From an uncultured virus (IMG/VR IMGVR_UViG_3300033571_018919) (lineage: Duplodnaviria > Heunggongvirae > Uroviricota > Caudoviricetes), in the IMG/VR virus record IMGVR_UViG_3300033571_018919, positions 62,001 to 126,000 of that record: 64,000 bases of DNA, one strand, 5' to 3'. The position numbers were made by a program, and so were the translations under genes. Positions 3,001 to 64,000 of this stretch are shown here, piece by piece. Below the pieces are notes generated by a model. That model was not told the DNA's origin, made no database searches, and worked only from the letters and a program-made list of their open reading frames with translations. Each line of letters starts with the position of its first letter. Within the stretch, counting starts at the first letter, position 1.

Positions 3001-6000
3001 GGAGCATTAACTAATTGGGCATCAGCCGGTGTAGTTTCAGCAATAAACAATTTAGGTGTGGCATTTGTTTGGGGCTCGGGTGGATCAGCCAACACTTCAA
3101 ATACCTACTTACTTAATACAACAGTTGACGCATCAAGCCCCGTGCAAGTTGGCGGATTTAGATGGCCCCCTACGAAATACTATAGTCCACAACAAGTAGG
3201 AACAAGTAGTTTTTCTTTAGTAAGTGCAGGTAGTTCTTATTCAATGGGTATTAACGCAGAGGATTTATTATATGGCTGGGGAGTAAACAATTCAGGTCAG
3301 CAAGCAGATGGAACTACAGTAGCAAAATCAAGTCCGGTACAAATCACAACAAGTAGTTATATTAGTGTAAGTGCTGGATTCGATCATGTACTTGCTATTG
3401 CAAGTAATGGAACATTATGGACATGGGGAAATAGTGCAGCTATAGGATTAGTAGTTCAACCTCAATCGTGGTCAGAAATATCAAGTGGCAGTAGTCATAC
3501 ACTAGCAATACGTAGTGATGGTGCATTATTTGCCTGGGGTATCGGAACATCCGGTCAATTAGGTAACACTTTAGCAATTTCAAATTCAAGCCCAGTGCAA
3601 GTAGGAACAAGCAGTTGGAGTCAAGTTAAAGCCGGAACCAACGTTAGTTTAGCAATAGACACAAATAATCGATTGTTTGGATGGGGACTTAATACTTCAG
3701 CACAACTTGGCATCGGTGTAATTACAAATAGATCAAGTCCTGTGCTAATAACTTCTGGAAGTTGGATAGGATTAGCAGCCGGTGGCACACATACATTTGC
3801 AATTGATTCAACTAATAAACTTTATGGCTGGGGAAATAATGATTCAGGTCAAATCATACCATATGGAAGTTATTTTCCAACAGGCTACAGTCCTGTAAGT
3901 GCAGGTGGAGGATTCTTTGCTGCGATAAGAACATCTGATTCAGGATTATTACTTTGGGGTAGAAATAACTTTGGTCAATTAGGTCAAGGAAATACAATTG
4001 ACAGATCCAATCCTATACAGTTAGGTTCAAATAGTTGGAAACAAGTAGCAGCAGGTACAAGTTTTATTTCTGCTATTAGAAGTGACGACACATTATGGAC
4101 ATGGGGTTTAAACACCTCAGGTCAATTAGGAGATAACACATCAATAAGCAAATCAAGCCCTGTGCAAGTTGCTGGCTCATGGCTTTCAATATCAGGTGGT
4201 GCGACCCACGCATTAGGTGTTAAAATAGATAATACTCTTTGGAGTTGGGGTTCAAACGATGTTGGGCAATTAGGTGATAGTACCGTAGTAAATAAATCTA
4301 GTCCAGTACAAATTGGTACTAGAAGTTGGTCAAGTGTAAACGCTGGAAATAGTTATAGTTTAGCAATCGATACAACAGGTATCGTTTATGGTTGGGGTTG
4401 GAATACAAGCGGTCAATTAGGCGACGGCACAACTACGAATAGAAATTCTCCAGTATTACTAGCATCACCTTTTAATACTACTTCATTTTCTCAAGTCACT
4501 GCTGGATTTTCACATTCCTTAGGATTTACTACTTCTGGTTTATTATATTCATGGGGAGGTAATAGTGTAGGAGAATTAGGTTTAGGTCTTATTACTAGTA
4601 GATCAAACCCAACACAAATTACTCAATATTCTGGATTATTGCCTCAAAATGGTAGTTGGTCTTTTATTTACGCAGGACAACAAATTTCTACTGCTATCAA
4701 CAATAATAATTTATATGTTTGGGGATCAGGCGCTAGTGGACAATTAGGATTAGGCGATACTATTAATAGATCAATACCGGTACAAACAGGTATAGGATAT
4801 AGTTGGAAAGCTGCTGCACTAGAAGTAGCAACCAATTTGGGTGCAGGATATTTAAGGTCAGATAATTCAGTTTGGGTTACTGGAAATAATACATTTGGTA
4901 ACTTAGGCAATAGCACAACTGTTAATAGGTCTGCACCTGTGATAGTTGGTTCGACAAGCATATCAACTCCAGTACAAGTGGGTACAAGTAGTTGGAGTCA
5001 AATTAGCGCAGGTGCAAGTTACAGTGCAGGTATAGATAGTTTAGGAAAACTATATACTTGGGGATTAAATAATACCTATCAATTAGGTAATAATACAACA
5101 GTCGATAGAAATGACGTTATCAATCAATTAACTAATAGTAGTTGGACAAGTGTAAGTACTGGTTTGAATCACGTTTTAGCTATAGCATCAAATAATAGTT
5201 TACATGCATGGGGATCGGCTGCGGCTGTTGGATTGTCTAATGTCACCGCACTATCATGGAGTACAATTGCAAGTGGTGGACAATCATCACACCTTGCTGC
5301 TATTAGAAGTGATGGTGCATTATTTACTTGGGGTTTAAACACTAATGGCCAATTAGGTGATGGTACAACAATAAACAAATCAAGTCCAACACAAATAAGC
5401 GGAACTATTAGCTGGACTTCGGTAGCAGTAGATTTATCAAATACAATGGCTATCAGATTGGGCGGCACTTTATTTGTTTGGGGAGGTAACGCTAGTGGTC
5501 AGCTAGGATTAAGTGATACTATTAATAGATCAAATCCAGTATTGTTAGATTATAATAGTTGGAGTCAAATATCTGTAAACACATCTCATACAGCAGGTAT
5601 TAGAAGTAATCAACTGTATGTATGGGGAAATAATGTAAGTGGTCAAATTGGTGACAATACAACCATCAATAAATCAAGTCCTGTACAGGTAACTGGTAGT
5701 TGGAATTCAGTTAGCGCCGGCGCTCAATATACTATAGGTATAAACAATTCTAGTTTATTATTTGTTTGGGGCGTCAACGCTGCCTTCCAATTAGGTACAG
5801 GTAACACGGTTAGCAGATCAAGTCCTGTACAGATTGCAACAGGAACTAGTTATTCAATAATTTCTGCAGGACCAACACATGCGGTTGCAATAGATACAAC
5901 TAGTAAGCTATGGACATGGGGACAACAATCAAGCGTAGGGATTGATGTTAATTCATGGACTCAGGTTAGTATAGGTAATCAGTTTGTTCTAGCTATAAGA

Positions 6001-9000
6001 AATGACGGAAGATTATTTGCTTGGGGAGTCAATTCGTCTGGTCAATTAGGATTGGGTGATACGATACTAAGGTCTAGTCCTGTATTAGTGGGTAATAATA
6101 GTTGGTCGGCAATTTCAGCGGCTATTGGTGGAAATAATAGCGCAGGTATTGCAAGCGACGGTAAATTATTTACTTGGGGTAATAATAATACGGGACAATT
6201 AGGTGATGGCACAACAATAAACAAATCGAGTCCAGTACAGATTTCCTCAGGATCAAGCTTTAGTCTTGTTGCAGCAGGCCCAGGATTCCTGTTGGCTGCA
6301 TCTACTAATTATGCATTATTTACTTCAGGAGGTAATAGTGTTGGACAATTAGGTGATGGCACAACAATAAACAAATCTACTCCAGTACAAATAACTGATC
6401 CGTCAGTTCAAAGTTGGATTTTTATAAGTGCAGGAACTAGCTATAGTGGTGGCATAGATAATTTAGGAAAGTTATATACTTGGGGAACAAATTTCCTTGG
6501 TATTTTAGGTCATGGCGACACAATTAATCGTTCAAAACCAACTATAGTATCAGGATCGACTAGTTGGTCTAAAGTAAGTGCAGGTGGTGTTAACACATTA
6601 GGTATTACTAATTTAGGAGCACTATATGCATGGGGACAGAATAACGTAGGACAAATAGGTGATGGCACTACTATAAACAAATCTAGCCCAGTACAAATAG
6701 GTTCAAGTAGTTGGTCCGCAGTTGCAGCTAGTGATAGTGTATCTATGGCTATTAGGTCAGATAATACTCTATGGACTTGGGGGCATAATAGTGTAGGACA
6801 ATTGGGTATAGGTCTTACTACAAATAGATCAAGTCCGGTGCAAGTTGTAGCTGGCGCACAATGGTCTTCAATAGCTAGTTCTGGTAATAATACTATGGTA
6901 GCTATCTCAATAGCTACTGGAACTAGTAATAAACTTTACTTGTGGGGCTTCAATGCCTCAGGACAATTAGGTACAGGAGACACAGTAAATCGTAGTAGCC
7001 CCACATTACTAGCAGGAACTACAGGAACTGTTATACCAACTAAAATTTTAAATTATCAAAGCTTTAGCCAAGTAAGCACTGGTATATCTTACACTATAGC
7101 TAAAAGAGCTAATGACAATGTTTTAATGGGATGGGGTATTAATACTTCTGGACAGTTAGGAGATAATACCGCAACACAAGCAAGAAGGAGTAATCCTACA
7201 TTAATTGGATATAGAACTTTTGTAGACGCATCAGAAAATAATATTACCTCAGTAACATTCACTGGCTCACCAAAAAATGTTGATTTTAGTCCTTTTGCAA
7301 ATCAGCCATATAATACTGTCACTAGTGGTGGTAGCACACAATTTAGTGGATTAGGTGATGTCATTAACTGTGGCACAAACTCAGTATTTGCATTTGGTAC
7401 AGGTCCGTTCTGTATTGAGTTTTGGTGCTATAATAATATATTGAAAGCTGTAGCAGCAGTAACAACCAATCCATCTGTCACAAGTGTTACAGATTCATTC
7501 ATTGTGGGATGGGACGCCGCTGGTTCATATAACGTAGTGGTAGGAAATACTACATTTGCTTCTTCTCCGGGATTTATAAAGACTAATGTTTGGCAACATA
7601 TTGTTTGTTGTCGTGATAGTTCCAATAATGTGGCTGTGTTTATTGATGGTGTGCGAGGATCTCCCGGCGTCGTTGCTAGCAACTTAGTCAGAACAACATT
7701 AGGAATAGGAGATTTCCCTACAACCCCATCTCAAAATATTGATGGGTATTTGTCAAATGTACGTCTAGTTAAAGGTAGTTCAGTATATGATCCTACATTG
7801 TCAACGTTAACTGTACCAACTTCTCCTTTAACTGCTATAGCAAACACTGTTTTACTGACATGTCAAACGTTTGGAACCGCATACACAGGTAATATATCTG
7901 CTTTGGGATCAACAAGTGTATTTGGAAACTCAAATAGTCAGTTATATGTAACTGGTTTAGCAGCATCTGGTCAGTTAGGTGATAATACAACTATTAACAA
8001 ATCTAGTTCAGTACAGTTAGGTACAGGATACGTAGGTTTAAACACTAATTACAATACACCTACATTAATTTCAAATCAATCATGGTCTTCAGTAAGTGCA
8101 GGCACTAGTTATAGTTTAGCACTGAGAAATGATAATAGTTTGTTTGCTTGGGGACTTAATAGTTCAGGACAGTTAGGTGTTTCAAATGCAGTTGCAAGAG
8201 GATTCCCAACTCAAATAACAAATAATAGCAGTACGTTTACAGATAACAGTACAAATAATTTTACGATTACACCTAACCTTTATGCACGAATGGTGAATTT
8301 TACACCATTTGCAACAGTGCCATATGATACAAGTGTATATGGTGGATCAGGATCTTTTATATCAAATGATACATATGTAAGCATAGCTAGTAATGCAGCA
8401 TTCGACTTGCCGGGCGATTTTACTATTGAACTTTGGTTTTACCTAAATTTCCCACCGGTTGCCAATAGTGTAATGTTATTAGATCGTTGGGTTACAGGAG
8501 TCGCAGGAAGTTACCAATTATATTACAGAGGCACTGGAAGATCAATCACATTCCTTGTGGATAGCGCAACAGTATTATTACAAGATCCTTCACCTGATAC
8601 AATTTTACCAAACGTTTGGTATCATGTTGCAGTTGTTCGTAATGGGGTCGGATCAAATAATGTAACATTGTATATTAATGGTTTACCAAAAATTTCTGCT
8701 ACTTATACAAGTTCTCTAACAACTAGTAATACATTATACTTAGGGACTCAAGGTTCAACTCTCACCGCTGATTTAGATGGGTATTTGTCTAATGTGAGAA
8801 TAGTTAAAGGAGTTGCGGTATACACAAGTAGTTTTGTTGTGCCAACAAGTCCGTTGACCGCTATATCTGGTACTAGTTTGTTGACATGTCGTGATATAGG
8901 TTCAACAACAATATTCAATAAGTTTTCAGCAGGAGCAGCACACACTTTAATTAGAAATAGTGCTAGTACACAGGTATCTGCATTTGGGCTTACTACATCT

Positions 9001-12000
9001 GGACAACTTGGTTTAGGTGATACAATTAATAGATCAAGTCCTGTTATAGTAGGTAGTGGTACTCAAATCAATACTTACACAAATAGTCCTGTTCTAGTAA
9101 CACCAGGTACTAGTGGATATACACAAGTATTTGCTGGACAAAGCTTTAGTGTTGTAAAAAGAACTGACGAAGTTTATGTGTGGGGACTCAATAGTTCAGG
9201 TCAATTAGGTGACAATTCAATTATTAACAAATCAAGTCCTACGTTACTAAGTGCTGGCACAAACTTACAAATTGTGGATCAAAGTAATAGTGGCTTCTCA
9301 ATTTTACGAAATGGTACTGGATACTCTACTACAGTAGTACCATTTGCAGGCGCGATATCTGGTTATTTTGGTGGTTCTCCTAACGGATTGCAGGTTGTAA
9401 ACGCAAATCAATTAGATTTTGGAGTAGGTGATTTTTGTATGGAATGTTGGATATATCCAACATTATCATATTATCCTCTATCTGGTGTCTTCATGTCACA
9501 TGGACAGTATAATGGATCAGGCTACTATATAGGTATGTCATGCTATCAAGGAAACATTAGAGTAGCTATAAGTAATCCCAATACAACACTTACTACTACT
9601 GTAGGTGTGACTCCGTTTACCGCTAATACGTGGTATCATGTTGCAGTTATTAGAAACCAGTCTACTGTATTACCCTCAACAATGAATATGTATGTTAACG
9701 GTACAATTATTGGTTCTATAACCAATACAAATAATTATGATTCAGTAGCAAATGAAGGAATAGGTTCTGCTTTTGCAGGAAGTGGGGCAAGGTCACCATA
9801 CTATTATTTTACTGGATACATTAGCAATGTTCGTATTGTCAAAGGAAATTATGTTTATGGTGGTAATGGTGCCGTTGGTAATTTCACGCCTCCAACAAGC
9901 CCATTAGCAAAAACACAATCAGCAGGTACAAATATAAATGCTATAACAGGTAACGAAACTTCCTTATTGATTTACAACACACCTAGTTCGGTAACAGAAG
10001 TAAGTGAAGGTTTCAATTTAATTAGTGCTGGTTATACACATGTTACTTCTGTATCAAGCAATAATAAATTATATGCATGGGGATTAAACTCTAGTGGACA
10101 ATTTGGTACTGGTAATGCAGTAACGTATAGTTCTCCTGTGCTTGTCGGTAATAGTCAAATAATTAATACTGGTACATTAAGTCCGGTGCAAGTGAATTTT
10201 GGATTGCCGAATAGTTGGGCTAGTGTTGCAGCAGGACAATCATTTAGTATGGTTCGTGCATTTGATGGTAGTGTTTATGTTTGGGGATTAAATTCCTCAG
10301 GACAATTAGGACAAAGTGATTCGATTAATAGATCGAAACCAACGTTGGTTGGTGGTCAATTAAATGCTGTATTGGATGTTAGTTCAGCAGCAAATACAAT
10401 TACTAAATATGGAACCACATATACTACAACAACTGTACCAACTGCAGGAAGTGTTGCCGGATATTTTAATGGTGTTAGTGATTATCTAAGATGTGATGCT
10501 GCTTTATCTGGTCTGACAACTACTACTGCTCAATTTACAATTGAAGGATACGGTAATCCATCAACTTACAGTGGTTTTGCAAACGGTAGATTTATGATTG
10601 GCATCAACTCAAAAAGTTCAGGAACTAATAATTTATTAATAGGCGTAGATAGAATCTATTATAATGGAACAGAAATATCAAGTCTTAGTTTGCCATTAAA
10701 CACTTGGACACATTTTGCGGCTACTTTTGATGGGACGACATTCAGATACTTTATAGGAGGTGTTGAATCGTATTCAGAAGTTGCTGCACCTCAAACAGCA
10801 TTTAGTAATAATGTATTTTTAATAGGAACAGAGGCTGATGCTGCCGACGGAGGAACGTTAGGTAATTATTTACAAGGATATTTGTCAAATATTAGAGTAA
10901 CACCTCAAGCGTTGTATACAGGTACATTTACGCCTCCTACTGGTATTTTGACAACATCAAGCGTAGGGACTTCAGGTCCAAATGTTGCTGCAAGTTTATC
11001 AGGAACAGTTTCGTTCTTAACATATACGACAGCTGCCGCTACAATCGATGGGGCACAACCGTTTTATCAATCGTCTATAGCTGCAGGCGCAACTCATTCA
11101 ACAACTGTAAATGATTTTAATATTCTTTATGCATGGGGAGCAGGAGGGTCTGGTCAACTTGGAACAAATGCGATTAATAATTTATCAAGTCCGGTAGTGG
11201 TTGGTGGACAAACGAATGCTGATTTTAGAAGTCCAATATTAGCGGCATCAGGTAGTTGGTCAAGTGCAAGTGCAGGTGCTAGCCATAGTTTAGCAATAAA
11301 GGTCGATAATACATTGTATGGTTGGGGACTTAATAACGCGGGTCAACTTGGATTGAATAATACAATTGATAGATCAAGTGTTACACAAATTGATACAACA
11401 GATGCTTATGCTTCTGTGAGTGCGGGTAGCAGTACATCAATGGTAATTAAGTTAAATAATTTGCTTTATGCAACAGGTTTGGGTACTTCAGGGGTATTGG
11501 GTACAAATACTGCAATTAATAGAAGTAGTTTTGTTCAAGTTGGGTCAAATAGTTGGACTTTAGTATCAACTGGACTTACGACTTCAATGGGTATTGATTC
11601 AAATAACCTCTTGTATAGTTGGGGAGCAACAACACTAGGTCAGTTAGGCTTAAGCACAACTACTCCTGCTAGAAGTAACCCAACATTAGTACAAGGTATT
11701 AATCATCAAACAAAATCACCAACTTTAGTTGCAGGAAGTTGGAATGCAATTAACGCAGGATTATCACATACTGCTGCATTAAGAAATGCACAACTTTATA
11801 CATGGGGACTCGCAACTTCAGGCCAAATTGGAAATAATTCTGTTACAAACAGATCAAGTCCAGTTTTAATAGGAGCCGGACTAGTAACAATTGTAGATAT
11901 AAGTTCTTTTAGTAGAACCATATCTACTAGTGGTAGTCCATACTCACAAAACATTGTAATACCTTTTGCAAATACATCCTCAACTAGTTTTGATGGGAGT

Positions 12001-13641
12001 TCAGATAATGCATTCTTTGCTTTAACCTCCTCCTACTGGGATGCAGACTTCACTATTGAATTTTTTATAAAAACTACGGACACAAAGTCACCTGCAGTAA
12101 TTTTTAGTAATTGGTTTGACTCTAGCTTTTTAGGTGGTTCTTTTTCTTTGAGTATCTTCTTAGGACAAGTTCGTGTTTCTCATTATCAAAGTAGTGGAAC
12201 AAATCAAACACAATTTATATCCACAGCAACATCTGTTAACGACAATAATTGGCATCATGTTGCATTTACTCAAGTACAAGGTATTAGTACTAAAACTTTT
12301 CGTATTTTTATTGACGGAATATTAAGTGCGTACAATGTTCAAACTACTTGGACGCAAGGAAGTTCAAACCCTAACAGCTACATTGCGTCACAAAATCCAG
12401 GAACATTTGGTGTAGCAAGTAGATATTTTAATGGATATCTTTCTAACTTTAGATTAGTAACTTCAGTAGTTTACTCTACTAGTAGTACGACTATTGGAGC
12501 AACAATATTTACGCCTCCATCAAATGCTTTAACCAATATATCAGGAACTCAAGTATTAATTATGGTTCAACCTGTTACTGGTTCGGGTGGCTACAGTTCT
12601 ACATTTGCAGGTTCGGCAACTACTTATGCTATTCGTGATGACGGTAACTTATATGCATGGGGTTTAGGAACTACAGGACAAATAAGTGGCTATGAACAAG
12701 CAATTAATAGATCCAATCCAAACCAAATAGGTAATAATTATCTTAGTGTCAATCAAAGCAGTCCGGTTTTAATTGCTAGTGGTAGTTGGAGTAAAATAGG
12801 TGCTGGTGCTAGTGTAAGTGCAGCTATACGCAGTGATGGGTTGCTATTTACTTGGGGTTTGAACACATCAGGCCAAATGGGTGATAATACAGTAATTGCT
12901 AAATCAAGTCCTGTACAAATTGGTAATAGTAGTTGGGCACAAGTAAGTGTAATTGATAACCATATGATAGCTTTGGATACTGCTAGTTCAGCATATACAT
13001 GGGGATTAAATGCTAGTGGTCAATTAGGTGATGGTACTACAATTAATAAAAGCAATCCTGTGTTATTGGGTAGTTTTACCACAATCGCCGCCGGTTCCTC
13101 ATTTACAGGTGGTATTACTAATACAGGTGCTTTGTTCATGTGGGGTGTAGGTGCACTCGGGGTTCTTGGCAATAGTGCAACAATTAATCGTTCAAGCCCA
13201 ATACAAATAGGAACAAGTAGTTGGACAGCTATAGCAGCAGGAGCAAGCGTTGCTAGTGCAATCAGAAGTGACGGTAGCATATTTAATTGGGGAGCAGGCA
13301 CTTTAGGTCAATTAGGTCAAGCATATTCTATTATATCACGTTCAAGCCCAATACAATTAGGAAATGAGTATGCGGTTGCTAACGTGTACATACCAACAAA
13401 AATTGATGGTGAGTTGGGTACAACGTCTTGGTCTTCAGTGAGTGCAGGAAATTCATATTCAGCAGGAATTTCAAATAATAACTCTTTATTCTTGTGGGGA
13501 TTAAATAACGCCGGCCAAATAGGACTGAATGATACTATTAATAGATCAAGCCCAACTCAAGTAACCGGTACTTATTCGGAAGTTAGTGCTGGTAATTCGT
13601 TTACAGGCGCTAGAGCTATTATATATCCAACATCACAATAA
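64..13641 (+). CDS. Giant RCC1/BLIP-II repeat beta-propeller protein with five LamG/concanavalin-like insertions; probable virion fibre or adhesin-like protein
   Basis: 4525 aa; dozens of ~50-aa repeats of the form WxxVSAGxxHxxAIxxDGxLxxWGxNxxGQLGDxTTINKSSPVQIG; LamG-like blocks (FTIEFW, WYHVAV, GYLSNVRIVKG) at about 7220-7870, 8235-8895, 9270-9975, 10370-11025 and 11890-12565; Ser/Thr/Gly/Asn-rich, no evident signal peptide. Confidence 0.9.
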   Translation: MPTNSPVLLGNKLPYNLPEPQKVDNNSWTQVSAFNDFTVGLRSNSILYAWGTNNSYQIGDGTTLNKSTPTQISNSSFLVVSAGFDHSAAITTNNTLFVWGNSASTFVQTINFSWTKVASSGNHTLAIRNDNTLWTWGLNTAGQLGDGTTINKSSPVQIGSGTWNDISAAVSHSVAIDSDYKLYVWGQNNAGQIGDNTSINKSSPVQIGSNSWLQVASGNSYTVSINSLNEMFAWGLNTSYQLGDRTVINKSSPVQIGSTFSWSSVSAGVDHSLAITTDNQLYIWGNPAGAGIQEPTTIYSWTQVTAGNIYTTAIRSDGSLWTWGRNTEGQLGQNNVILQSSPVQVGNSSYTQVSGKWSHTSAIKADSTIIGYGSNTYGELGDGTTIAKSNPVTLSSSFTNTSWTSVSASVNHTAAIRNDGRIYIWGLNTSGQLGDNTAISKSNPVSLASPFDTSSWTQVDLGRDFALARRLDGKLYAWGFNDLGQLGIVNSTFPIGGDTLNRSNPVLISDSSWIQVSAGFDHSLAIRSDNTLWTWGSSVAIGLVTEPMSWLAVSGGATHTLGIRDNGTLWTWGTNDQGQLGNSTTVIRLSPVQIGLTRWASVSAGSSYSHAIDQAGLLYAWGLNSSGQLGDNSSINKSSPVQIGSSSWIEVTDGVNHTLAIDADGRLYGWGQFTSGQTGVYDEIYSWTQITSGLGLRTDGTLWAWGQLTGDGTTIIRSSPVQIGSSDWSSIAPIFSMIDPKAALKTNGTLWMWGTNALGQLGQNDTINRSSPVQVAGSWNQISVQSGHAAARNVSNIIYTWGKNEAGQLGDGTTIDKSSPVLLSGAFGTTSWTSVSVGWSHTAALRNDNIIYIWGWNNQGQLGTGLTTSRSNPVTLDGAFATSSFVAVSSGALHTLAVRSDSRLVAWGYNLEGSLGDNTTINKSTPVVIGTSSWSVVTAARTNNLAVTTTGTLWFWGADGGSGSSAQNATINRSAPTQIGALTNWASAGVVSAINNLGVAFVWGSGGSANTSNTYLLNTTVDASSPVQVGGFRWPPTKYYSPQQVGTSSFSLVSAGSSYSMGINAEDLLYGWGVNNSGQQADGTTVAKSSPVQITTSSYISVSAGFDHVLAIASNGTLWTWGNSAAIGLVVQPQSWSEISSGSSHTLAIRSDGALFAWGIGTSGQLGNTLAISNSSPVQVGTSSWSQVKAGTNVSLAIDTNNRLFGWGLNTSAQLGIGVITNRSSPVLITSGSWIGLAAGGTHTFAIDSTNKLYGWGNNDSGQIIPYGSYFPTGYSPVSAGGGFFAAIRTSDSGLLLWGRNNFGQLGQGNTIDRSNPIQLGSNSWKQVAAGTSFISAIRSDDTLWTWGLNTSGQLGDNTSISKSSPVQVAGSWLSISGGATHALGVKIDNTLWSWGSNDVGQLGDSTVVNKSSPVQIGTRSWSSVNAGNSYSLAIDTTGIVYGWGWNTSGQLGDGTTTNRNSPVLLASPFNTTSFSQVTAGFSHSLGFTTSGLLYSWGGNSVGELGLGLITSRSNPTQITQYSGLLPQNGSWSFIYAGQQISTAINNNNLYVWGSGASGQLGLGDTINRSIPVQTGIGYSWKAAALEVATNLGAGYLRSDNSVWVTGNNTFGNLGNSTTVNRSAPVIVGSTSISTPVQVGTSSWSQISAGASYSAGIDSLGKLYTWGLNNTYQLGNNTTVDRNDVINQLTNSSWTSVSTGLNHVLAIASNNSLHAWGSAAAVGLSNVTALSWSTIASGGQSSHLAAIRSDGALFTWGLNTNGQLGDGTTINKSSPTQISGTISWTSVAVDLSNTMAIRLGGTLFVWGGNASGQLGLSDTINRSNPVLLDYNSWSQISVNTSHTAGIRSNQLYVWGNNVSGQIGDNTTINKSSPVQVTGSWNSVSAGAQYTIGINNSSLLFVWGVNAAFQLGTGNTVSRSSPVQIATGTSYSIISAGPTHAVAIDTTSKLWTWGQQSSVGIDVNSWTQVSIGNQFVLAIRNDGRLFAWGVNSSGQLGLGDTILRSSPVLVGNNSWSAISAAIGGNNSAGIASDGKLFTWGNNNTGQLGDGTTINKSSPVQISSGSSFSLVAAGPGFLLAASTNYALFTSGGNSVGQLGDGTTINKSTPVQITDPSVQSWIFISAGTSYSGGIDNLGKLYTWGTNFLGILGHGDTINRSKPTIVSGSTSWSKVSAGGVNTLGITNLGALYAWGQNNVGQIGDGTTINKSSPVQIGSSSWSAVAASDSVSMAIRSDNTLWTWGHNSVGQLGIGLTTNRSSPVQVVAGAQWSSIASSGNNTMVAISIATGTSNKLYLWGFNASGQLGTGDTVNRSSPTLLAGTTGTVIPTKILNYQSFSQVSTGISYTIAKRANDNVLMGWGINTSGQLGDNTATQARRSNPTLIGYRTFVDASENNITSVTFTGSPKNVDFSPFANQPYNTVTSGGSTQFSGLGDVINCGTNSVFAFGTGPFCIEFWCYNNILKAVAAVTTNPSVTSVTDSFIVGWDAAGSYNVVVGNTTFASSPGFIKTNVWQHIVCCRDSSNNVAVFIDGVRGSPGVVASNLVRTTLGIGDFPTTPSQNIDGYLSNVRLVKGSSVYDPTLSTLTVPTSPLTAIANTVLLTCQTFGTAYTGNISALGSTSVFGNSNSQLYVTGLAASGQLGDNTTINKSSSVQLGTGYVGLNTNYNTPTLISNQSWSSVSAGTSYSLALRNDNSLFAWGLNSSGQLGVSNAVARGFPTQITNNSSTFTDNSTNNFTITPNLYARMVNFTPFATVPYDTSVYGGSGSFISNDTYVSIASNAAFDLPGDFTIELWFYLNFPPVANSVMLLDRWVTGVAGSYQLYYRGTGRSITFLVDSATVLLQDPSPDTILPNVWYHVAVVRNGVGSNNVTLYINGLPKISATYTSSLTTSNTLYLGTQGSTLTADLDGYLSNVRIVKGVAVYTSSFVVPTSPLTAISGTSLLTCRDIGSTTIFNKFSAGAAHTLIRNSASTQVSAFGLTTSGQLGLGDTINRSSPVIVGSGTQINTYTNSPVLVTPGTSGYTQVFAGQSFSVVKRTDEVYVWGLNSSGQLGDNSIINKSSPTLLSAGTNLQIVDQSNSGFSILRNGTGYSTTVVPFAGAISGYFGGSPNGLQVVNANQLDFGVGDFCMECWIYPTLSYYPLSGVFMSHGQYNGSGYYIGMSCYQGNIRVAISNPNTTLTTTVGVTPFTANTWYHVAVIRNQSTVLPSTMNMYVNGTIIGSITNTNNYDSVANEGIGSAFAGSGARSPYYYFTGYISNVRIVKGNYVYGGNGAVGNFTPPTSPLAKTQSAGTNINAITGNETSLLIYNTPSSVTEVSEGFNLISAGYTHVTSVSSNNKLYAWGLNSSGQFGTGNAVTYSSPVLVGNSQIINTGTLSPVQVNFGLPNSWASVAAGQSFSMVRAFDGSVYVWGLNSSGQLGQSDSINRSKPTLVGGQLNAVLDVSSAANTITKYGTTYTTTTVPTAGSVAGYFNGVSDYLRCDAALSGLTTTTAQFTIEGYGNPSTYSGFANGRFMIGINSKSSGTNNLLIGVDRIYYNGTEISSLSLPLNTWTHFAATFDGTTFRYFIGGVESYSEVAAPQTAFSNNVFLIGTEADAADGGTLGNYLQGYLSNIRVTPQALYTGTFTPPTGILTTSSVGTSGPNVAASLSGTVSFLTYTTAAATIDGAQPFYQSSIAAGATHSTTVNDFNILYAWGAGGSGQLGTNAINNLSSPVVVGGQTNADFRSPILAASGSWSSASAGASHSLAIKVDNTLYGWGLNNAGQLGLNNTIDRSSVTQIDTTDAYASVSAGSSTSMVIKLNNLLYATGLGTSGVLGTNTAINRSSFVQVGSNSWTLVSTGLTTSMGIDSNNLLYSWGATTLGQLGLSTTTPARSNPTLVQGINHQTKSPTLVAGSWNAINAGLSHTAALRNAQLYTWGLATSGQIGNNSVTNRSSPVLIGAGLVTIVDISSFSRTISTSGSPYSQNIVIPFANTSSTSFDGSSDNAFFALTSSYWDADFTIEFFIKTTDTKSPAVIFSNWFDSSFLGGSFSLSIFLGQVRVSHYQSSGTNQTQFISTATSVNDNNWHHVAFTQVQGISTKTFRIFIDGILSAYNVQTTWTQGSSNPNSYIASQNPGTFGVASRYFNGYLSNFRLVTSVVYSTSSTTIGATIFTPPSNALTNISGTQVLIMVQPVTGSGGYSSTFAGSATTYAIRDDGNLYAWGLGTTGQISGYEQAINRSNPNQIGNNYLSVNQSSPVLIASGSWSKIGAGASVSAAIRSDGLLFTWGLNTSGQMGDNTVIAKSSPVQIGNSSWAQVSVIDNHMIALDTASSAYTWGLNASGQLGDGTTINKSNPVLLGSFTTIAAGSSFTGGITNTGALFMWGVGALGVLGNSATINRSSPIQIGTSSWTAIAAGASVASAIRSDGSIFNWGAGTLGQLGQAYSIISRSSPIQLGNEYAVANVYIPTKIDGELGTTSWSSVSAGNSYSAGISNNNSLFLWGLNNAGQIGLNDTINRSSPTQVTGTYSEVSAGNSFTGARAIIYPTSQ

Positions 13642-29100: not shown

Positions 29101-29481
29101 ATGGCTTATTCGGAAAAGGTTCTAGATCATTATGAAAATCCCAGAAACGTGGGTAGTTTTGATGCTAGCGATCTGTCCATTGGCACTGGTCTTGTTGGTG
29201 CACCTGCTTGCGGTGATGTTTTAAAACTTCAAATAAAAGTAGAAAATGATATTATCACAGACGCAAAATTCAAAACGTATGGCTGCGGGTCGGCGATTGC
29301 TAGTTCGTCGCTTGTTACGGAATGGCTTAAAGGAAAAACGCTTCAGGAAGCTGATGAAATTAAGAACACGCAAATTGCGGAAGAGTTGGCTCTCCCGCCA
29401 GTCAAAATTCACTGTTCAATATTGGCGGAAGATGCTATAAAATCTGCTATTAACGATTATAGGAAAAAGTGTTCGCTCTAA
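29101..29481 (+). CDS. iscU: Fe-S cluster scaffold IscU
   Basis: MAYSEKVLDHYENPRNVG, GAPACGD, KTYGCGSAIASSS and LPPVKIHC. Confidence 0.97.
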   Translation: MAYSEKVLDHYENPRNVGSFDASDLSIGTGLVGAPACGDVLKLQIKVENDIITDAKFKTYGCGSAIASSSLVTEWLKGKTLQEADEIKNTQIAEELALPPVKIHCSILAEDAIKSAINDYRKKCSL

Positions 29482-29669
29482 TAGTCATTGCGATTTTAAA
29501 TGGATCGCCAATTAATAAAAATGATGGTAGTTTAGTCATGTATTTTAATACTAGGCAAGAGTGTTTAGATGCCAAAGATAAAATTATAAATTCATGGCAA
29601 ATTACTAGATATCGTGTTTCTGCTTCCTGCATTTATATTAAACCTTATAAAAATGATTACACTAACTGA
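29469..29669 (+). CDS. Small hypothetical protein
   Basis: 66-aa ORF filling the iscU-iscA gap; hydrophobic N-terminus, FNTRQECL and ASC. Confidence 0.55.
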   Translation: MFALIVIAILNGSPINKNDGSLVMYFNTRQECLDAKDKIINSWQITRYRVSASCIYIKPYKNDYTN

Positions 29670-29979
29670 AACTGCTGCAAATAGAATTAAACAGCAAATA
29701 TCTAAACGGGGTAAGGGTGAGGGCATCTTATTGGGCGTTAGAACAACCGGATGCTCAGGTCTAGCTTATAAGTTAGAATATGTAGACCAACCACCTGTAA
29801 CAAGAGACTACATGCAATACACAAGTAACGGAGTTAATATTTGGATAAATGGTAGAGATTTACCATATATTGACGGATTAACAATGGAATATAAAAGAGA
29901 AGGCTTAAATGAGGGTTTTGATTTTATTAATCCAAAAGAAAAAGATCGTTGTGGTTGCGGAGAAAGTTTTAGAGTATAA
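29653..29979 (+). CDS. iscA: Fe-S cluster assembly A-type carrier IscA
   Basis: MITLTETAA, GVRTTGCSGLAY and C-terminal CGCGESF; start moved to the Met at 29653. Confidence 0.95.
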   Translation: MITLTETAANRIKQQISKRGKGEGILLGVRTTGCSGLAYKLEYVDQPPVTRDYMQYTSNGVNIWINGRDLPYIDGLTMEYKREGLNEGFDFINPKEKDRCGCGESFRV

Positions 29980-34174: not shown

Positions 34175-34975
34175 ATGATAAGAGGAATTAATAATAAACC
34201 ATATTTTGATATGGAAGCATATATCGATATGGATACATTTGATACACTACAGCCAGAAATTTATCGTGGTTTTGCAGAAGCAAGAGAATTCGCCAAAGAA
34301 GGCACATGGATGACGCCAGGCTTTACATTTGAAAATATGAGTTATCAATTATCATGGAAGCCTATATATCAATCAATACAAGATTTTTTAGCATTACCCG
34401 ATGATGATCCAATTAAACAAGGTGGTATTGATCTATATCGTGACTTTGATAACTTTGAAATAAGAAATAAATTTACTAGGTATGTGAAGATGGCTATGGG
34501 AGGATACGATCCATACATCTATTATTTTTTATGGGAACAAGGCTCATGGGATGATAGAACTGCTCCTAGAAAACTAACACCAGAGGCAAAGTATTTTCCT
34601 AACGTAGTAAATTGGGTAGAAAAAATGACAGGATCAATATTTACTGATATAGGTCGTGTTATATTTTTTCACTGTGAAGCAGATGGAATCCCTTTTGAAC
34701 ACAGAGACCTAGATGCAAAAAATGGCATCAATGTTGTTAAACCTCATCGTAATGAATTTATTCACATTCGTCCTAACACAAAAAAAGCTTTTTATATTTG
34801 GGACCCTGAAAAGAAAAATAAAATTTACATTAATACTAGAGCTGCTTGGTGGAATGATACAGATTGGCACGGCGGAGAACGTATTATGGAACAAAGTTAT
34901 GCTCTAAGAATTGATGGCACATTTACAGATGAATTTCGTAAAAAATTAGGTATAAGTAATTTAGAATATTATTAA
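34175..34975 (+). CDS. Fe(II)/2OG oxygenase-like protein
   Basis: GRVIFF...FEHRD...WNDTDWHG...YALRIDG HxD...H triad. Confidence 0.6.
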   Translation: MIRGINNKPYFDMEAYIDMDTFDTLQPEIYRGFAEAREFAKEGTWMTPGFTFENMSYQLSWKPIYQSIQDFLALPDDDPIKQGGIDLYRDFDNFEIRNKFTRYVKMAMGGYDPYIYYFLWEQGSWDDRTAPRKLTPEAKYFPNVVNWVEKMTGSIFTDIGRVIFFHCEADGIPFEHRDLDAKNGINVVKPHRNEFIHIRPNTKKAFYIWDPEKKNKIYINTRAAWWNDTDWHGGERIMEQSYALRIDGTFTDEFRKKLGISNLEYY

Positions 34976-60396: not shown

Positions 60397-61969
60397 ACTG
60401 TTCTTTGAGCCAGTCGTAGTCATTTATCCTTTTTAATACTTCTGTATCATTCTTGTTAGCCATCGCAAATTCTTTGCCTGCAATAGCTCCGTCAATTGCA
60501 AATTCGCCGTACTTCTTATCTTTGCCTACTGTACACCAAACGTTTAATCTGTCGTTAGTTTCAATTGAGTTTTGTCTATCAATTATTTGACTTGCTAACT
60601 TTACGCATTCTCTAAATGCACTTCGCCATGTATTGAATGGATCCGTATTAAAATTAGTATAATTACTTAGTTTAATTACAGGTTCGTATAAATTACTTAT
60701 ACTTGTAGTCATATCAGGTTTATTAGTTTGCATATGTAACGTGTAGAATCTGGGTAATAGCTTTACACCACCGTACCCATATATTAACCCATTAATTGGA
60801 TTAACGCTGCGCCAAACTCTAACTTTGGCTTGTTCATAAAAAGGTACACTAAAATCAAAAGAAAAATCATCAACTAATGATGCATCGGCATCTACTACCC
60901 AAAAATAATCTGTTTTTGCAATCTTAGCAGCAGCAATGTGTGCTTGATGTATCCCTGCTATGCCGTCAATTCTTTTTGCTTTTGGATATTTTTTAAGTAC
61001 TAGTTCAAAATTTTTTTCAGCGTTTGGTTCACCGTAGCTTATGAATATTACGTCAAATTCACCTGGGTATTTGTATTTTATAAATGTTTCAGGACTTCTT
61101 CTGCTTACAGGAATTTCTTCTTTGTATTCTTTGCTAGCATTTGGTTGAAATACATCTACAATTCTTCCATCATTTGTTATAGAACTTAACGATCTACCTA
61201 ATCGATTACATTCAAACAATATATCATCTTTATATAATTCATACTGAGCTTCAAATAGGTTATCTAAATGTTCAAAATCTTTGATATCCCCTATATTAAA
61301 ATTTTGTTTTGACAATGCGATATATGCTGCCTGCCTGGCGCCCAATATAGCCCAAACTCCATTTTCAACGTCTGTGCCTAAATGCATCCATCTCCAAAGT
61401 CTTTCATAATTTCTCCAGTTGATTTCTGAAATTTCTTTTACGAATATATCATTTTCCATACATAGTTTGATGCCTTCCCTAAACCCACTTCTCCAAGCTT
61501 GCTTTGGACTTGAATTTATGTTTACATCACTTAAACTACGATTTAATTGTAGATAATTTTTAAAATCAAAATCAACACTATTAGGATTGGAGCTGTTTTC
61601 ATGGGTACGCATAGTTTTCAGTTTTTCTACTGGCCAAACTTTGATACCACCGTTACCATACGTATTTCCATTAATGTTGTTTTTACCACTAAAGCTTATT
61701 ACACTGTCGGATACGTTTACGGTATCGACTAGATTCAGTTCAATTTGCAATAAATTATCGTGTACGTAGTTATCACCATCAACAATAATAACGTGACTAT
61801 GATTTTCAACAAGATTTGCAACAGCTTTGTGTGCAGTGTCGCTTCCCTTTATATTGTCAACACGCAGTGCATTTGGACAAATTTCTAGTAAGCGTAAGTA
61901 ATTGGCTTCTTTGTTTTCCTCTTGATAACTTAGAAAAACGACTGGATAATTTTGAATTTTGAATAGCAT
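60368..61969 (-). CDS. Internally duplicated GT-A-like (DxD) glycosyltransferase
   Basis: Two homologous halves, each with F.SY.E.N...AH...VD(G/A)D...NG..YG.GG.K..P...WRS.FRE..KL; TAAATA 5 nt before the ATG. Confidence 0.6.
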   Translation of the reverse strand: MLFKIQNYPVVFLSYQEENKEANYLRLLEICPNALRVDNIKGSDTAHKAVANLVENHSHVIIVDGDNYVHDNLLQIELNLVDTVNVSDSVISFSGKNNINGNTYGNGGIKVWPVEKLKTMRTHENSSNPNSVDFDFKNYLQLNRSLSDVNINSSPKQAWRSGFREGIKLCMENDIFVKEISEINWRNYERLWRWMHLGTDVENGVWAILGARQAAYIALSKQNFNIGDIKDFEHLDNLFEAQYELYKDDILFECNRLGRSLSSITNDGRIVDVFQPNASKEYKEEIPVSRRSPETFIKYKYPGEFDVIFISYGEPNAEKNFELVLKKYPKAKRIDGIAGIHQAHIAAAKIAKTDYFWVVDADASLVDDFSFDFSVPFYEQAKVRVWRSVNPINGLIYGYGGVKLLPRFYTLHMQTNKPDMTTSISNLYEPVIKLSNYTNFNTDPFNTWRSAFRECVKLASQIIDRQNSIETNDRLNVWCTVGKDKKYGEFAIDGAIAGKEFAMANKNDTEVLKRINDYDWLKEQYDRFYKNSI

Positions 61970-62005
61970 GACAATATTTATTAGAAAAAACGGGCAAATA
62001 AGTAT

Positions 62006-62034
62006 TTGACTATATAGATATCTTATTGTACAAT
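62006..62034 (+). promoter_or_regulatory. Sigma70-like promoter
   Basis: TTGACT-17 nt-TACAAT. Confidence 0.6.
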
Positions 62035-62106
62035 GTGTACATTGAAAATGCGTAAAAAAGCTAGATAATTTAAGCTTTTATTATGCCAGGACTAAATAAC
62101 TTTACT

Positions 62107-62247
62107 ATGATGAACTTTACTTGTAAAAATACGATGCTGCATGAAGGGCTATGGTCAGTTTTAGCCATAGAGTCTTTTGCGCCTGTATATCCAACAAGTA
62201 TCCGTGGCACAAATGATAATCAAAGCGGCTACCGGGGAACGGAATAA
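62107..62247 (+). CDS. Possible small ORF (46 aa)
   Basis: MMNFTCKNTMLHEGLWSVLAIESFAPVYPTSIRGTNDNQSGYRGTE, between a promoter/TAAATA (62093-62098) and a terminator; no SD. Confidence 0.35.
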   Translation: MMNFTCKNTMLHEGLWSVLAIESFAPVYPTSIRGTNDNQSGYRGTE

Positions 62248-62274
62248 ACAAGTAACATTATAAAAGTTTATACG

Positions 62275-62307
62275 AACCCTGGAAATTTAAAATCTCCAGG
62301 GTTTTTT
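62275..62307 (+). terminator. Intrinsic terminator
   Basis: AACCCTGGA...TCCAGGGTT stem followed by a T run. Confidence 0.75.
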
Positions 62308-62326
62308 GTTGCAGGAATACAACACT

Positions 62327-62485
62327 ATGATTGACAAAATAACAGAAAATGATATAAAATTCGGTTCGCTTGATAACAAAAAGTGGTATGAAGAACATGT
62401 GTTATCAAAAGAACAACTAGATTTGTTAATAAAAAACAAATTTGATAGGTATAAAAATTATCAAATAGACAAGGTTGATTGCTAA
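62327..62485 (+). CDS. Small hypothetical protein (52 aa), not in the ORF track
   Basis: MIDKITENDIKFGSLDNKKWYEEHVLSKEQLDLLIKNKFDRYKNYQIDKVDC with AGGA upstream. Confidence 0.5.
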   Translation: MIDKITENDIKFGSLDNKKWYEEHVLSKEQLDLLIKNKFDRYKNYQIDKVDC

Positions 62486-62544
62486 TTTTTATACAAGTGT
62501 TTAGAGAGAACGAGGCTCTTAGGTTCACTATAAAAAATCTTTAA

Positions 62545-62742
62545 CGGGCGGACAGTATACATGAAGTATATGGCGAAAACATATATAGTAAGACTACTGG
62601 TTGGAACGTCGATTCTAACATAATGCGAGATAACTCGCATTATTCTAAAGCATACTCAGTGATATAGGGTACAGTCGGGATGCCGTAATGGATCCTTTTA
62701 GATGAGCGGTTCAACTCCGTTAATAGTATGTTTCAGAATAAT
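62545..62742 (+). ncRNA. Candidate structured non-coding RNA(s) leading into the tRNA array
   Basis: Consecutive hairpins and an 18-bp long-range stem enclosing a canonical T-arm (GCGG TTCAACT CCGT); no convincing ORF. Confidence 0.45.
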
Positions 62743-62751
62743 AATTACAAT

Positions 62752-62827
62752 TGGGGATTCGCCAAGTTGGTAAGGCACCGGATTTTGATTCCGGCATTCG
62801 GTGGTTCGAGTCCATCATCCCCAGCCA
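62752..62827 (+). tRNA. tRNA-Gln(TTG)
   Basis: Acceptor TGGGGAT/ATCCCCA, anticodon arm CCGGA-TTTTGAT-TCCGG, GGTTCGAGTCC, encoded CCA. Confidence 0.95.
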
Positions 62828-62829
62828 TT

Positions 62830-62906
62830 GCCCCAATAACTCAGTGGACTAGAGTACTGTGCTACGAACGCAGGAGTCGGAGGTTCGAATCCTTCTTGGG
62901 GTACCA
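62830..62906 (+). tRNA. tRNA-Arg(ACG)
   Basis: Acceptor GCCCCAA/TTGGGGT, anticodon arm CTGTG-CTACGAA-CGCAG, GGTTCGAATCC, CCA. Confidence 0.95.
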
Positions 62907-62912
62907 TTCTTG

Positions 62913-62941
62913 TTGACTAAATACGTTTGCTTGTTTAATAT
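62913..62941 (+). promoter_or_regulatory. Sigma70-like promoter upstream of pqqA, with an overlapping TAAATA
   Basis: TTGACT-17 nt-TAATAT; TAAATA at 62918-62923. Confidence 0.5.
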
Positions 62942-62966
62942 GAGCGTTCTTATACAGGAGGTAAAC

Positions 62967-63038
62967 ATGTGGACTAAACCTACAGCACAGGATATGCGTT
63001 TTGGTTTTGAAATCACTATGTATATTGCAAATCGCTAA
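62967..63038 (+). CDS. pqqA: Pyrroloquinoline quinone precursor peptide PqqA (23 aa)
   Basis: MWTKPTAQDMRFGFEITMYIANR: W-T-K-P leader, R-x-G-F-E-x-T-M-Y core with the Glu/Tyr (ExxxY) that form PQQ; SD AGGAGGT at 62956-62962. Confidence 0.93.
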   Translation: MWTKPTAQDMRFGFEITMYIANR

Positions 63039-63056
63039 TATACAACATTGATGGGC

Positions 63057-63083
63057 AAAAAGGTAGCTATGCTACCTTTTTTT
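63057..63083 (+). terminator. Intrinsic (possibly bidirectional) terminator after pqqA
   Basis: AAAAAGGTAGC-TAT-GCTACCTTTTTTT. Confidence 0.75.
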
Positions 63084-63085
63084 AC

Positions 63086-63161
63086 GGTAGAGTAGCATAG
63101 CGGCTAATGCGCCACCTTCATACGGTGTTTATCGTCAGTTCGAGTCTGACCTCTACTACCA
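63086..63161 (+). tRNA. tRNA with CAT anticodon (Met or Ile2)
   Basis: Acceptor GGTAGAG/CTCTACT, anticodon loop TTCATAC, T-arm GTCAG-TTCGAGT-CTGAC, CCA. Confidence 0.85.
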
Positions 63162-63175
63162 ATAAAGGAAATATT

Positions 63176-63328
63176 ATGCCAATGTATGAAACTACTGTTA
63201 GAACGCCGAGCGGCGAAGAAAAGAAAAGAATTTATGCGGATACACCGCAAGAGGCTAAAAAACTTTTTGAACAATTGTATGGTGGGCCTAGAGCAGTTCC
63301 ATATATACCAAAAATAGTACCAAGTTAG
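63176..63328 (+). CDS. Small hypothetical protein (50 aa) between tRNAs
   Basis: MPMYETTVRTPSGEEKKRIYADTPQEAKKLFEQLYGG...; SD AAAGGA; the last base of the stop is G1 of tRNA-Ala. Confidence 0.7.
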   Translation: MPMYETTVRTPSGEEKKRIYADTPQEAKKLFEQLYGGPRAVPYIPKIVPS

Positions 63329-63401
63329 GGGGATTAGTTAAATGGGATAACAACGGCTTTGCAAGCCGTGATTAACAGTTCGATTCTGTTATCCTCCACC
63401 A
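63328..63401 (+). tRNA. tRNA-Ala(TGC)
   Basis: Acceptor GGGGGAT/ATCCTCC with G3:U70, anticodon arm ACGGC-TTTGCAA-GCCGT, CCA. Confidence 0.93.
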
Positions 63402-63412
63402 AAACATTCAAT

Positions 63413-63489
63413 GGTGATGGTAGCTCAGTTGGTAGAGTCCCGGATTGTGATTCCGGTCGTCGTGGGTTCGAGCCCCATCCTTCACCCCA
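63413..63489 (+). tRNA. tRNA-His(GTG)
   Basis: G-1:C73, anticodon arm CCGGA-TTGTGAT-TCCGG, GGTTCGAGCCC, CCA. Confidence 0.95.
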
Positions 63490-63492
63490 AAT

Positions 63493-63570
63493 ACCCTGAT
63501 GGCGAAATTGGTAGACGCACCAGTTTAAGGTACTGGATTGTTGAGAGTTCGAGTCTCTCTCAGGGCACCA
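63493..63570 (+). tRNA. tRNA-Leu(AAG), atypical (short variable region, A1:C72)
   Basis: Leu-type D-arm GCGAAATTGGTAGACGC, anticodon arm CCAGT-TTAAGGT-ACTGG, T-arm GAGAG-TTCGAGT-CTCTC, A73 CCA. Confidence 0.75.
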
Positions 63571-63572
63571 AT

Positions 63573-63648
63573 GCCGTTCAAGCTAACCAAGTGGAAGCGT
63601 CTGTCTGAAGAACAGAATGGCCTGGAGCGTTACCAGGGGTCGGCACCA
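63573..63648 (+). tRNA. tRNA-Phe(GAA), atypical T-loop
   Basis: Anticodon arm TCTGT-CTGAAGA-ACAGA; T-arm CCTGG-AGCGTTA-CCAGG; acceptor GCCGTTC/GGTCGGC; CCA. Confidence 0.7.
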
Positions 63649-63652
63649 ATTT

Positions 63653-63681
63653 TTGACAAATATTAAATTATTTGTTATACT
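63653..63681 (+). promoter_or_regulatory. Near-consensus sigma70 promoter directly before tRNA-Arg(CCG)
   Basis: TTGACA-17 nt-TATACT. Confidence 0.75.
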
Positions 63682-63685
63682 TGAT

Positions 63686-63760
63686 GAGTCCTTAGTCTAA
63701 TGGATAAGATACTGCATTCCGATTGCATTGATGCAGGTTCGATTCCTGCAGGACTTACCA
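63686..63760 (+). tRNA. tRNA-Arg(CCG)
   Basis: Acceptor GAGTCCT/AGGACTT, anticodon loop TTCCGAT, T-arm GCAGG-TTCGATT-CCTGC, CCA. Confidence 0.85.
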
Positions 63761-63792
63761 AAAGTAAATACTATTTTATATAGGAGATTAAA

Positions 63793-64000
63793 ATGTCTGT
63801 CTTAGCTTTGGATATCACAGGAATCCCTAGACAATGGGTTTCAAACGATATTGCAATCACTTACCATGCAAAAGAGATGGTAGCATGGAGTATTGGTGAA
63901 ATTGTTGCACGTTATCGTGGTGGCATTCAAAATAATGGCAAAATGAGTTATCTTGAAACTCCTAGTATTATTGCCATTAAAGGACATGGTTTTGATCCTA
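63793..64000 (+). CDS. N-terminus of a probable HNH endonuclease-family protein (runs off the window)
   Basis: MSVLALDITGIPRQWVS...VAWSIG...RGG...PSIIAIKG resembles the N-terminal region of HNH proteins; SD AGGAG; the HNH motif itself is not in the window. Confidence 0.6.
   Translation, partial: MSVLALDITGIPRQWVSNDIAITYHAKEMVAWSIGEIVARYRGGIQNNGKMSYLETPSIIAIKGHGFDP

Follow-up and report, generated by a model that had tools for sequence, protein, structure and literature searches.

Near the end of the window, a 64,000-nucleotide stretch of DNA from an uncultured virus, a small plus-strand gene at 62967–63038 encodes PqqA, the 23-residue precursor peptide of the cofactor PQQ. The product, MWTKPTAQDMRFGFEITMYIANR, takes up 72 bp counting its TAA stop. 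It scores 39.5 bits with TIGR02107 (cut-off 20) and 39.4 bits with PF08042 (cut-off 21.1), covering both models in full. An earlier note on this DNA had called a genuine PqqA from the letters alone and named these two profiles as a check; passing both curated models at E ~1e-10 means that the gene is not a chance ORF. The peptide contains the E15-I-T-M-Y19 core, with the codons of Glu15 and Tyr19 at 63009–63011 and 63021–63023 (plus strand), and it stops four residues after Tyr19. During PQQ synthesis, PqqE cross-links the Glu and Tyr of an ExxxY motif, and proteolysis, PqqB and PqqC complete the cofactor. The PqqA peptide is consumed in each synthesis, while the PQQ enzymes turn over. In this scheme PqqD binds PqqA by its N-terminal leader, and the targets of PqqE are the Glu and Tyr near the C-terminus (PMC10906245, in excerpt) of a peptide that usually has 22–24 residues. 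PHROGs has no family for the window peptide, and an exact look-up in protein collections returned neither it nor most of its viral variants.

The immediate surroundings are as the earlier note described them. A perfect Shine-Dalgarno sequence, AGGAGGT (62956–62962, plus strand), lies 4 nt before the ATG, and the gene sits between tRNA-Arg(ACG) at 62830–62906 and a tRNA with a CAT anticodon at 63086–63161, both on the plus strand. A longer reading frame of 59 codons with a GTG start (62859–63038) was rejected because it overlaps tRNA-Arg and has a lower HMM score, and because the Shine-Dalgarno sequence and all homologues favor the ATG at 62967. Downstream, at 63057–63083 on the plus strand, an 11-bp stem with a 3-nt loop ends in a T run and resembles an intrinsic terminator. 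The hairpin proper (63057–63081) with its U-tract folds at −13.9 kcal/mol (z −3.5), a stability equaled in 1 of 200 shuffles, so the proposed terminator hairpin is real. It was not among the sites listed by a consensus terminator scan, probably because its A-tract pairs with the U-tract. Similar hairpins follow pqqA in three other viral loci (L021, L029, L111).

The sigma70-like promoter candidate of the note, TTGACT-17-TAATAT (62913–62941, plus strand), is present and matches the consensus at 9 of 12 positions, but it is weak by itself, since such matches are common nearby (19 in 3 kb against 10.4 in shuffles). What the note had missed is a CTAAATA at 62917–62923 (plus strand), 50 nt before the ATG, which overlaps the −35 box of this candidate. 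It is a copy of a T4-type late-promoter-like motif, [AC]TAAATA, found within 60 nt upstream of 20 of the 84 genes of the contig, where a uniform distribution would give 1.05. The best permuted control motif precedes 10 genes, though it is more than three times as frequent. Additionally, [AC]TAAATA precedes the portal gene and several genes in the long structural region. Given this enrichment and placement and the presence of a late sigma factor, we read the motif as a putative phage late promoter, and we take the T4 late promoter to be its analogue. With a sigma70-like site and a late motif both upstream, pqqA may be transcribed early and late, through either or both.

The comparison does not support the late motif as a general feature of viral pqqA. 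Of the distinct upstream regions in the two sets, 3 of 96 and 12 of 111 contain it (shuffles 5.3 and 8.0), though other phages may use other late motifs. Among the 96 distinct upstream regions of FEITMY-type viral genes, 28 have a different word, ATACAT, 30–50 nt ahead of the start, against 4.3 in shuffles. There it often forms a CATAC...GTATG hairpin; the window copy lacks the word.

The source record is linear, 127,168 bp long with 35% GC and about 25% complete (CheckV), and its end falls inside the tRNA array. It encodes gp23 (the T4-type major capsid protein), gp20 (portal), gp21 (prohead protease), a baseplate hub and a late sigma factor, along with an SbcCD-like nuclease, ribonucleotide reductase, IscU/IscA and 13 radical SAM enzymes. 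These phage hallmark genes rule out a cellular contig and uphold the viral origin assumed in the earlier note: the contig is a fragment of a T4-like phage. Contiguous with the phage tRNA array, pqqA lies among viral genes on a bona fide viral genome. An independent lake run yielded a contig that bridges the arrangement (62709–63020), and near-identical DNA was found in lake-water metagenomes from separate studies. Counted in contigs, depth in the pqqA bin reached 795, 204 and 373 in three lake runs, compared to less than 40 in the flanks. This excess, together with loose contig ends at the pqqA borders, indicates that the same small gene occurs in many other contexts. Among the contigs of one small metatranscriptome run (share 0.05), none lay over pqqA.

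The array itself, which the earlier note had placed in its title, is not a conserved setting. A tRNA lies within 1 kb of pqqA in 17 of 80 viral loci in one set and 0 of 80 in another, with tRNAs on both sides in 2 of 80, and we rejected a functional meaning of this position on these counts. Elsewhere, viral pqqA adjoins T4 clamp-loader and regA genes, tmRNA, capsid genes or recombination modules. In the closest long relative (303 kb, capsid 93% identical) it lies between a tmRNA and a porin gene, and it is missing from the complete genome of another relative, 374 kb long with a capsid 79% identical. Overall, pqqA was found in only 1 of 19 relatives searched, where 17 of the 18 negatives are fragments. 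As a separate observation, a permuted (two-piece) tmRNA lies within 1 kb of pqqA in many T4-like pqqA phages (L011, L012, L026, L040, L077, L081, L106 and L489).

Upstream, at 34972–60423, the contig carries an island of 13 radical SAM genes of B12-binding, SPASM/twitch and HMPTM zinc-ribbon types. Methyltransferases, 2OG-Fe(II) oxygenases and an aminotransferase accompany them, IscU/IscA (29101–29979) adjoin, and relatives hold 12–19 radical SAM genes of the same types. The island possibly serves virion or glycan modification.

The earlier note had considered a link between this island and pqqA possible though unsupported; our comparisons contradict it. With such a link, the peptide would be a substrate of the phage's own radical SAM enzymes (34972–60423), yielding a phage-made product. 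The island does end about 1 kb before the tRNA region, and in a close relative (G350) radical SAM genes lie within 2 kb of pqqA. The enzymes themselves tell against the idea: the best score with the PqqE model TIGR02109 anywhere in the contig is 29.4 bits against a cut-off of 381, and the QxYxW triad occurs in none of the 13 island enzymes compared to three of three bacterial PqqE proteins. This triad is described as unique to PqqE (PMC10906245, in excerpt), and by both profile and triad the island enzymes fall outside the PqqE family. No PqqD or RRE was found in the contig. Moreover, the two traits separate among phages, as the complete or near-complete genomes of G309, G311 and Melnitz have pqqA and no radical SAM gene, while G357 has 12 radical SAM genes and no pqqA. 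We regard a phage-made product as extremely improbable. Both the tRNA array and the radical SAM island are incidental to pqqA.

The contig has one PF08042 match over its 127,168 bp (about 25% of a genome) and no pqqB, pqqC, pqqD or pqqE, so the window pqqA is not part of a pqqABCDE operon; the relative G350 (86% complete) also lacks pqqC and pqqD. We extended the search to 50 pqqA-bearing viral records: the contig itself, 44 IMG/VR records (the longest of the first 80, four of them at least 90% complete) and five complete isolate genomes. Nine of the 50 are complete or near-complete and most are fragments. None has PqqB, PqqC, PqqD, PqqE or a PQQ alcohol dehydrogenase (TIGR03075) over cut-off, and a viral methanol or alcohol dehydrogenase as partner for pqqA was accordingly rejected for these records. 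The same profile searches detected PqqB, C, D and E in an Acinetobacter control contig. For TIGR03075, 14 control genomes matched below the cut-off and G001–G005 above it.

Two wider comparisons agree. Counting only loci with enough downstream DNA, and for viruses the matches listed, a pqqB motif within 600 nt downstream of pqqA occurs in 0 of 149 viral loci (0 of 78 and 0 of 71) compared to 65 of 77 bacterial loci. Across all of IMG/VR, alignment of PqqC found two pqqC loci, against at least 239 pqqA stretches found with two peptide patterns, two kinds of search that differ in sensitivity. One of the two pqqC loci is a contig with a cellular-type pqq cluster. The other is a 3.4-kb contig (L501), where pqqB and pqqC follow directly on a phage capsid gene and pqqA (981–3095); either the assembly fused two sources at the pqqA they share, or this is a rare real recombinant. 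Thus stand-alone pqqA, noted for the window before, holds across phages, essentially always without pqqB–E, and the earlier suggestion that the phage supplies only the substrate gains comparative backing. Apart from this, a 106-codon ORF in another contig (L500, minus strand, near 2666 in reverse coordinates) encodes four tandem PqqA-like cores, a multi-core precursor. It lies upstream of pqqD and pqqE and beside pqqC, in a contig labelled GVMAG.

How widespread the viral gene is became apparent from exact back-translated patterns, which returned at least 119 FEITMY-type and at least 120 FEVTMY-type stretches from IMG/VR. The matches listed comprise 210 distinct gene sequences, the window's included; three of the 119 FEITMY loci were dropped for missing upstream DNA, leaving 116. 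Several features that lie outside the search patterns are nonetheless kept among the matches listed. An M(x)W start is found in all 116 FEITMY-type and all 120 FEVTMY-type loci, a stop four residues after the Tyr in 116 of 116 and 119 of 120, and a Shine-Dalgarno-like word in 114 of 116 and 115 of 120, respectively. Trp2 and Pro5 are kept in 209 of the 210 distinct sequences. The exact window peptide recurs in six other listed viral loci, encoded with 6–8 silent changes per 69 nt. Relative to the window gene, pN/pS at the 13 unconstrained codons is 0.36 (101 sequences) and 0.45 (107 sequences), in comparisons that are not independent of each other. These patterns show that viral pqqA is conserved under purifying selection across many phage lineages.

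Cultured phages carry the gene as well. A tblastn search of 50,697 GenBank phage records gave 12 matches, nine of them Methylophilaceae phages: four Melnitz records, Venkman, MEP301, MEP401, MEP402 and P19250A. The others are an uncultured phage from a spring and two contigs of Acinetobacter; the one of these two that we inspected carries a cellular pqq operon. Venkman, MEP301, Melnitz, MEP401 and MEP402 are listed as the OM43 isolates of 2023 (PMC10580990, in excerpt). With P19250A added to these five, all six named Methylophilaceae phage isolates covered here have pqqA, though later isolates may lack it. The gene is unannotated in each of the six isolate records inspected, as it is in the spring phage. 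The five isolate peptides that we scored all pass PF08042. Overall, viral copies of pqqA are common, recur in unrelated myo-, sipho- and podo-type phages and usually go unannotated; they have been overlooked because the gene is shorter than gene-caller limits.

So small a gene could be a neutral passenger, a recombination relic from the host or an attachment site of the kind that tRNA and tmRNA genes provide. Its 72 bp, its closeness to tRNA or tmRNA genes in some phages, its patchiness among relatives and the single L501 junction of capsid–pqqA with pqqB–pqqC would all fit. The conservation described above speaks to the contrary, with silent changes exceeding replacements and the Shine-Dalgarno sequence and stop position kept, as does the recurrence in unrelated phages. 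At most 53 of 66 nt of the window gene match any bacterial copy listed, and neither the contig nor the 54 neighbor and marker proteins scanned include an integrase. Judged by this conservation, a passenger or relic appears largely refuted, and we consider it very unlikely. A second possibility is a decoy: bound to PqqD or PqqE, the phage peptide would displace host PqqA and thereby lower PQQ or draw off SAM and Fe-S capacity. Processing of viral PqqA peptides is presumed, and the window leader is unlike all 120 bacterial peptides listed. Against a decoy, the Glu and Tyr of the window peptide are intact at canonical spacing, although dead variants would escape patterns that required both residues. 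In P19250A the phage peptide is that of the host group and therefore cannot be a poisoned analogue there. We hold the decoy to be highly improbable.

The match between phage and host peptides offers a route to the host. The P19250A peptide is identical to PqqA of Ca. Methylopumilus universalis, which suggests that viral peptides mirror those of the host group. GTDB has at least 120 stretches that encode the last 15 residues of the window peptide, and 75 of the 80 titled genomes among the matches listed carry betaproteobacterial names (Comamonadaceae, Limnobacter, Rhodocyclaceae and unresolved Burkholderiales), with no Methylophilaceae among those 80. The best named bacterial match listed is a Rhodoferax PqqA, identical at 20 of the last 22 residues. 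None of the 120 bacterial matches listed is identical to the window peptide, and their genes share at most 53 of 66 nt with it. All five tested genomes with the window's PqqA core have PQQ alcohol dehydrogenases (TIGR03075) over cut-off. In four of them the enzymes contain W-D-[YF]-D-G, which we take to be a lanthanide-type signature. Homologues of the contig's IscU, one of them identical and encoded in a 300,542-bp contig, and of the relative's porin bear no organism names that would point to a host. These comparisons support the PQQ-making proteobacterial host proposed before, which is very probably a betaproteobacterium. Since the GTDB comparison (at least 120 matches) was fixed on the window's core, the finer call is soft: a freshwater PQQ maker of Comamonadaceae-like rather than Methylophilaceae type seems most likely, and we lean modestly toward a relative of Rhodoferax, Polaromonas or Limnohabitans.

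The window pqqA, placed among viral genes, is a homologue of a host metabolic gene under purifying selection and a candidate auxiliary metabolic gene. We consider it probable that it is a functional, host-derived gene kept in this role by a lytic T4-like phage. In the mechanism we propose, phage takeover of transcription would reduce host pqqA output while existing PqqB–E persist. Phage pqqA, transcribed from the early sigma70 promoter, the late promoter or both, would then supply PqqA to these host enzymes as their consumed substrate. Continued PQQ synthesis would feed periplasmic alcohol and methanol dehydrogenases and thereby sustain respiration during virion production. The boost to host PQQ-dependent dehydrogenases put forward in the earlier note is likewise a prediction. 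The same logic underlies cyanophage psbA, through which a phage supplies a rapidly consumed part of the host energy system. The role of PsbA, an enzyme subunit, is demonstrated, whereas that of the peptide substrate PqqA in infection is proposed.

Alternatively, host enzymes could make PQQ from the phage peptide for redox protection, as an antioxidant, instead of for dehydrogenase-driven energy. Rubrerythrin (13), AhpC (6), AhpD-like (6) and Hsp20 (15) genes occur within 5 kb of 80 viral pqqA loci, counts that come from related loci with no control region counted, and PMC7936290 (in excerpt) refers to protection by PQQ. These neighbors are general T4-like accessory genes, and the cultured carriers infect obligate C1 oxidizers that depend on PQQ methanol dehydrogenase (PMC7678222, in excerpt). 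We therefore view a purely protective benefit as unlikely.

Bacteria themselves appear to amplify pqqA, as multiple matches per genome are common: among 301 Burkholderiales genomes searched, 61 of the 87 with a pqqA match have at least two matches and 26 at least three, numbers that are not strict copy numbers and become 59 of 85 without the two unpublished genomes G031 and G299. Several copies also occur in a PQQ producer that is presumably a Hyphomicrobium-type strain. Grown on methanol, this producer carries five pqqA copies, three of them stand-alone (PMC9851590, in excerpt).

Several points count against a supply of substrate by the phage. The small RNA run gave no contig over the gene. 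Since PQQ can be recycled, a single infection may not require fresh synthesis of it. The complete 374-kb relative lacks pqqA, and the gene is thus not universal in the group. In Acetobacter pasteurianus, extra pqqAB raised PQQ by 29% compared to an eightfold rise for pqqABCDE (PMC7936290, in excerpt), and PqqA supply may, by analogy, not be limiting.

Viral pqqA is already published, and the window is a further example. The earlier note implied more novelty than this allows, as PqqA was reported in 2020 for VP_266, a population of T4-like phages from Lake Baikal (Coutinho et al. 2020, Microbiome 8:163, PMC7678222, in excerpt). Like the window phage, VP_266 is freshwater and T4-like with about 35% GC, and its pqqA was likewise read as an auxiliary gene supporting host PQQ enzymes. 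In the parts of that paper available to us, a viral methanol dehydrogenase is reported, whereas the 50 pqqA records here have no PQQ dehydrogenase. Radical SAM genes are tied there to PQQ synthesis, a link that fails here, and Methylophilaceae hosts are predicted, whereas the window peptide core points to Comamonadaceae-like ones. The same parts state that isolate P19250A lacks the AMGs reported there, yet we find in it an unannotated pqqA. Elsewhere, viral pqqA/D/E are listed among phosphate genes (PMC13188868, in excerpt), and the available text of PMC11118758 mentions the prokaryotic PqqA family only. A term search of main texts on Melnitz, MEP401/402, MEP301 and Venkman gave no mention of a phage pqq gene, and neither the substrate-only pattern nor pqqA in cultured phages was found stated in the literature covered, from which most subscription papers fall outside.

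Bacterial PqqA (TIGR02107 equivalog, PF08042, extra stand-alone chromosomal copies included) shares its length, W..P leader and ExxxY core with the window peptide. The window copy differs in lying in a phage with its own terminator-like hairpin, no downstream pqqB and a late-promoter-like motif. The genes of Melnitz, Venkman, MEP301, MEP401, MEP402 and P19250A are stand-alone and led by a Shine-Dalgarno sequence, as in the window, with 23–24 codons, and Melnitz pqqA also adjoins a tRNA. These isolates have an EMRFGFEVTMY-type core and known hosts, while the window has DMRFGFEITMYIANR and an inferred host.

Most auxiliary genes of phages encode enzymes or subunits of complexes; here a consumed peptide substrate would steer host metabolism at a cost of 72 bp. 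A broader reading, which we put forward tentatively and with somewhat less than even confidence, is that phages carry pqqA almost universally as a substrate-only auxiliary gene that has been overlooked. In this reading, phages unrelated to one another that infect PQQ-dependent betaproteobacteria of fresh and marine waters would keep the consumed peptide and never the enzymes. Expression late in infection would then promote cofactor synthesis in the host and, through it, respiration of alcohol or methanol. With the window, this strategy would no longer be confined to phages of obligate methylotrophs but would include those of Comamonadaceae-like heterotrophs, and the peptide variant could serve as a 72-bp host marker. 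Because cultured phage–host pairs (P19250A, Melnitz, Venkman and the MEP phages) carry pqqA, it is directly testable whether viruses sustain the oxidation of C1 compounds and alcohols in lake and coastal waters.

Other features of the window deserve mention. Rfam over 61900–64000 returned tRNAs only. A tRNA-like sequence at 63573–63648 (plus strand), with GAA at the anticodon position, is called by neither ARAGORN nor Rfam; it is 78% identical to tRNA-Phe in L021 and is probably an atypical tRNA-Phe. In the plus-strand region 62083–62315, an ORF of 54 codons matches no family; a late motif (GACTAAATA at 62090) precedes or overlaps it, and downstream come a strong hairpin and a T run (62277–62310). 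This region is kept in lake metagenome contigs and touched by contigs of the RNA run, and its product may be a leader peptide or else a non-coding RNA. Before tRNA-Gln, the non-coding stretch 62530–62750 (plus strand) has no Rfam match and is a candidate structured RNA; it matches L111 at 86% over 84 nt, is kept in other phage contigs and has variant-rich metagenome cover. At the opposite end of the window, 64–13641 (plus strand) encodes a 4525-residue protein with RCC1-like repeats and laminin-G domains, and upstream of it in the contig lies a series of large laminin-G and RCC1 virion-type proteins.
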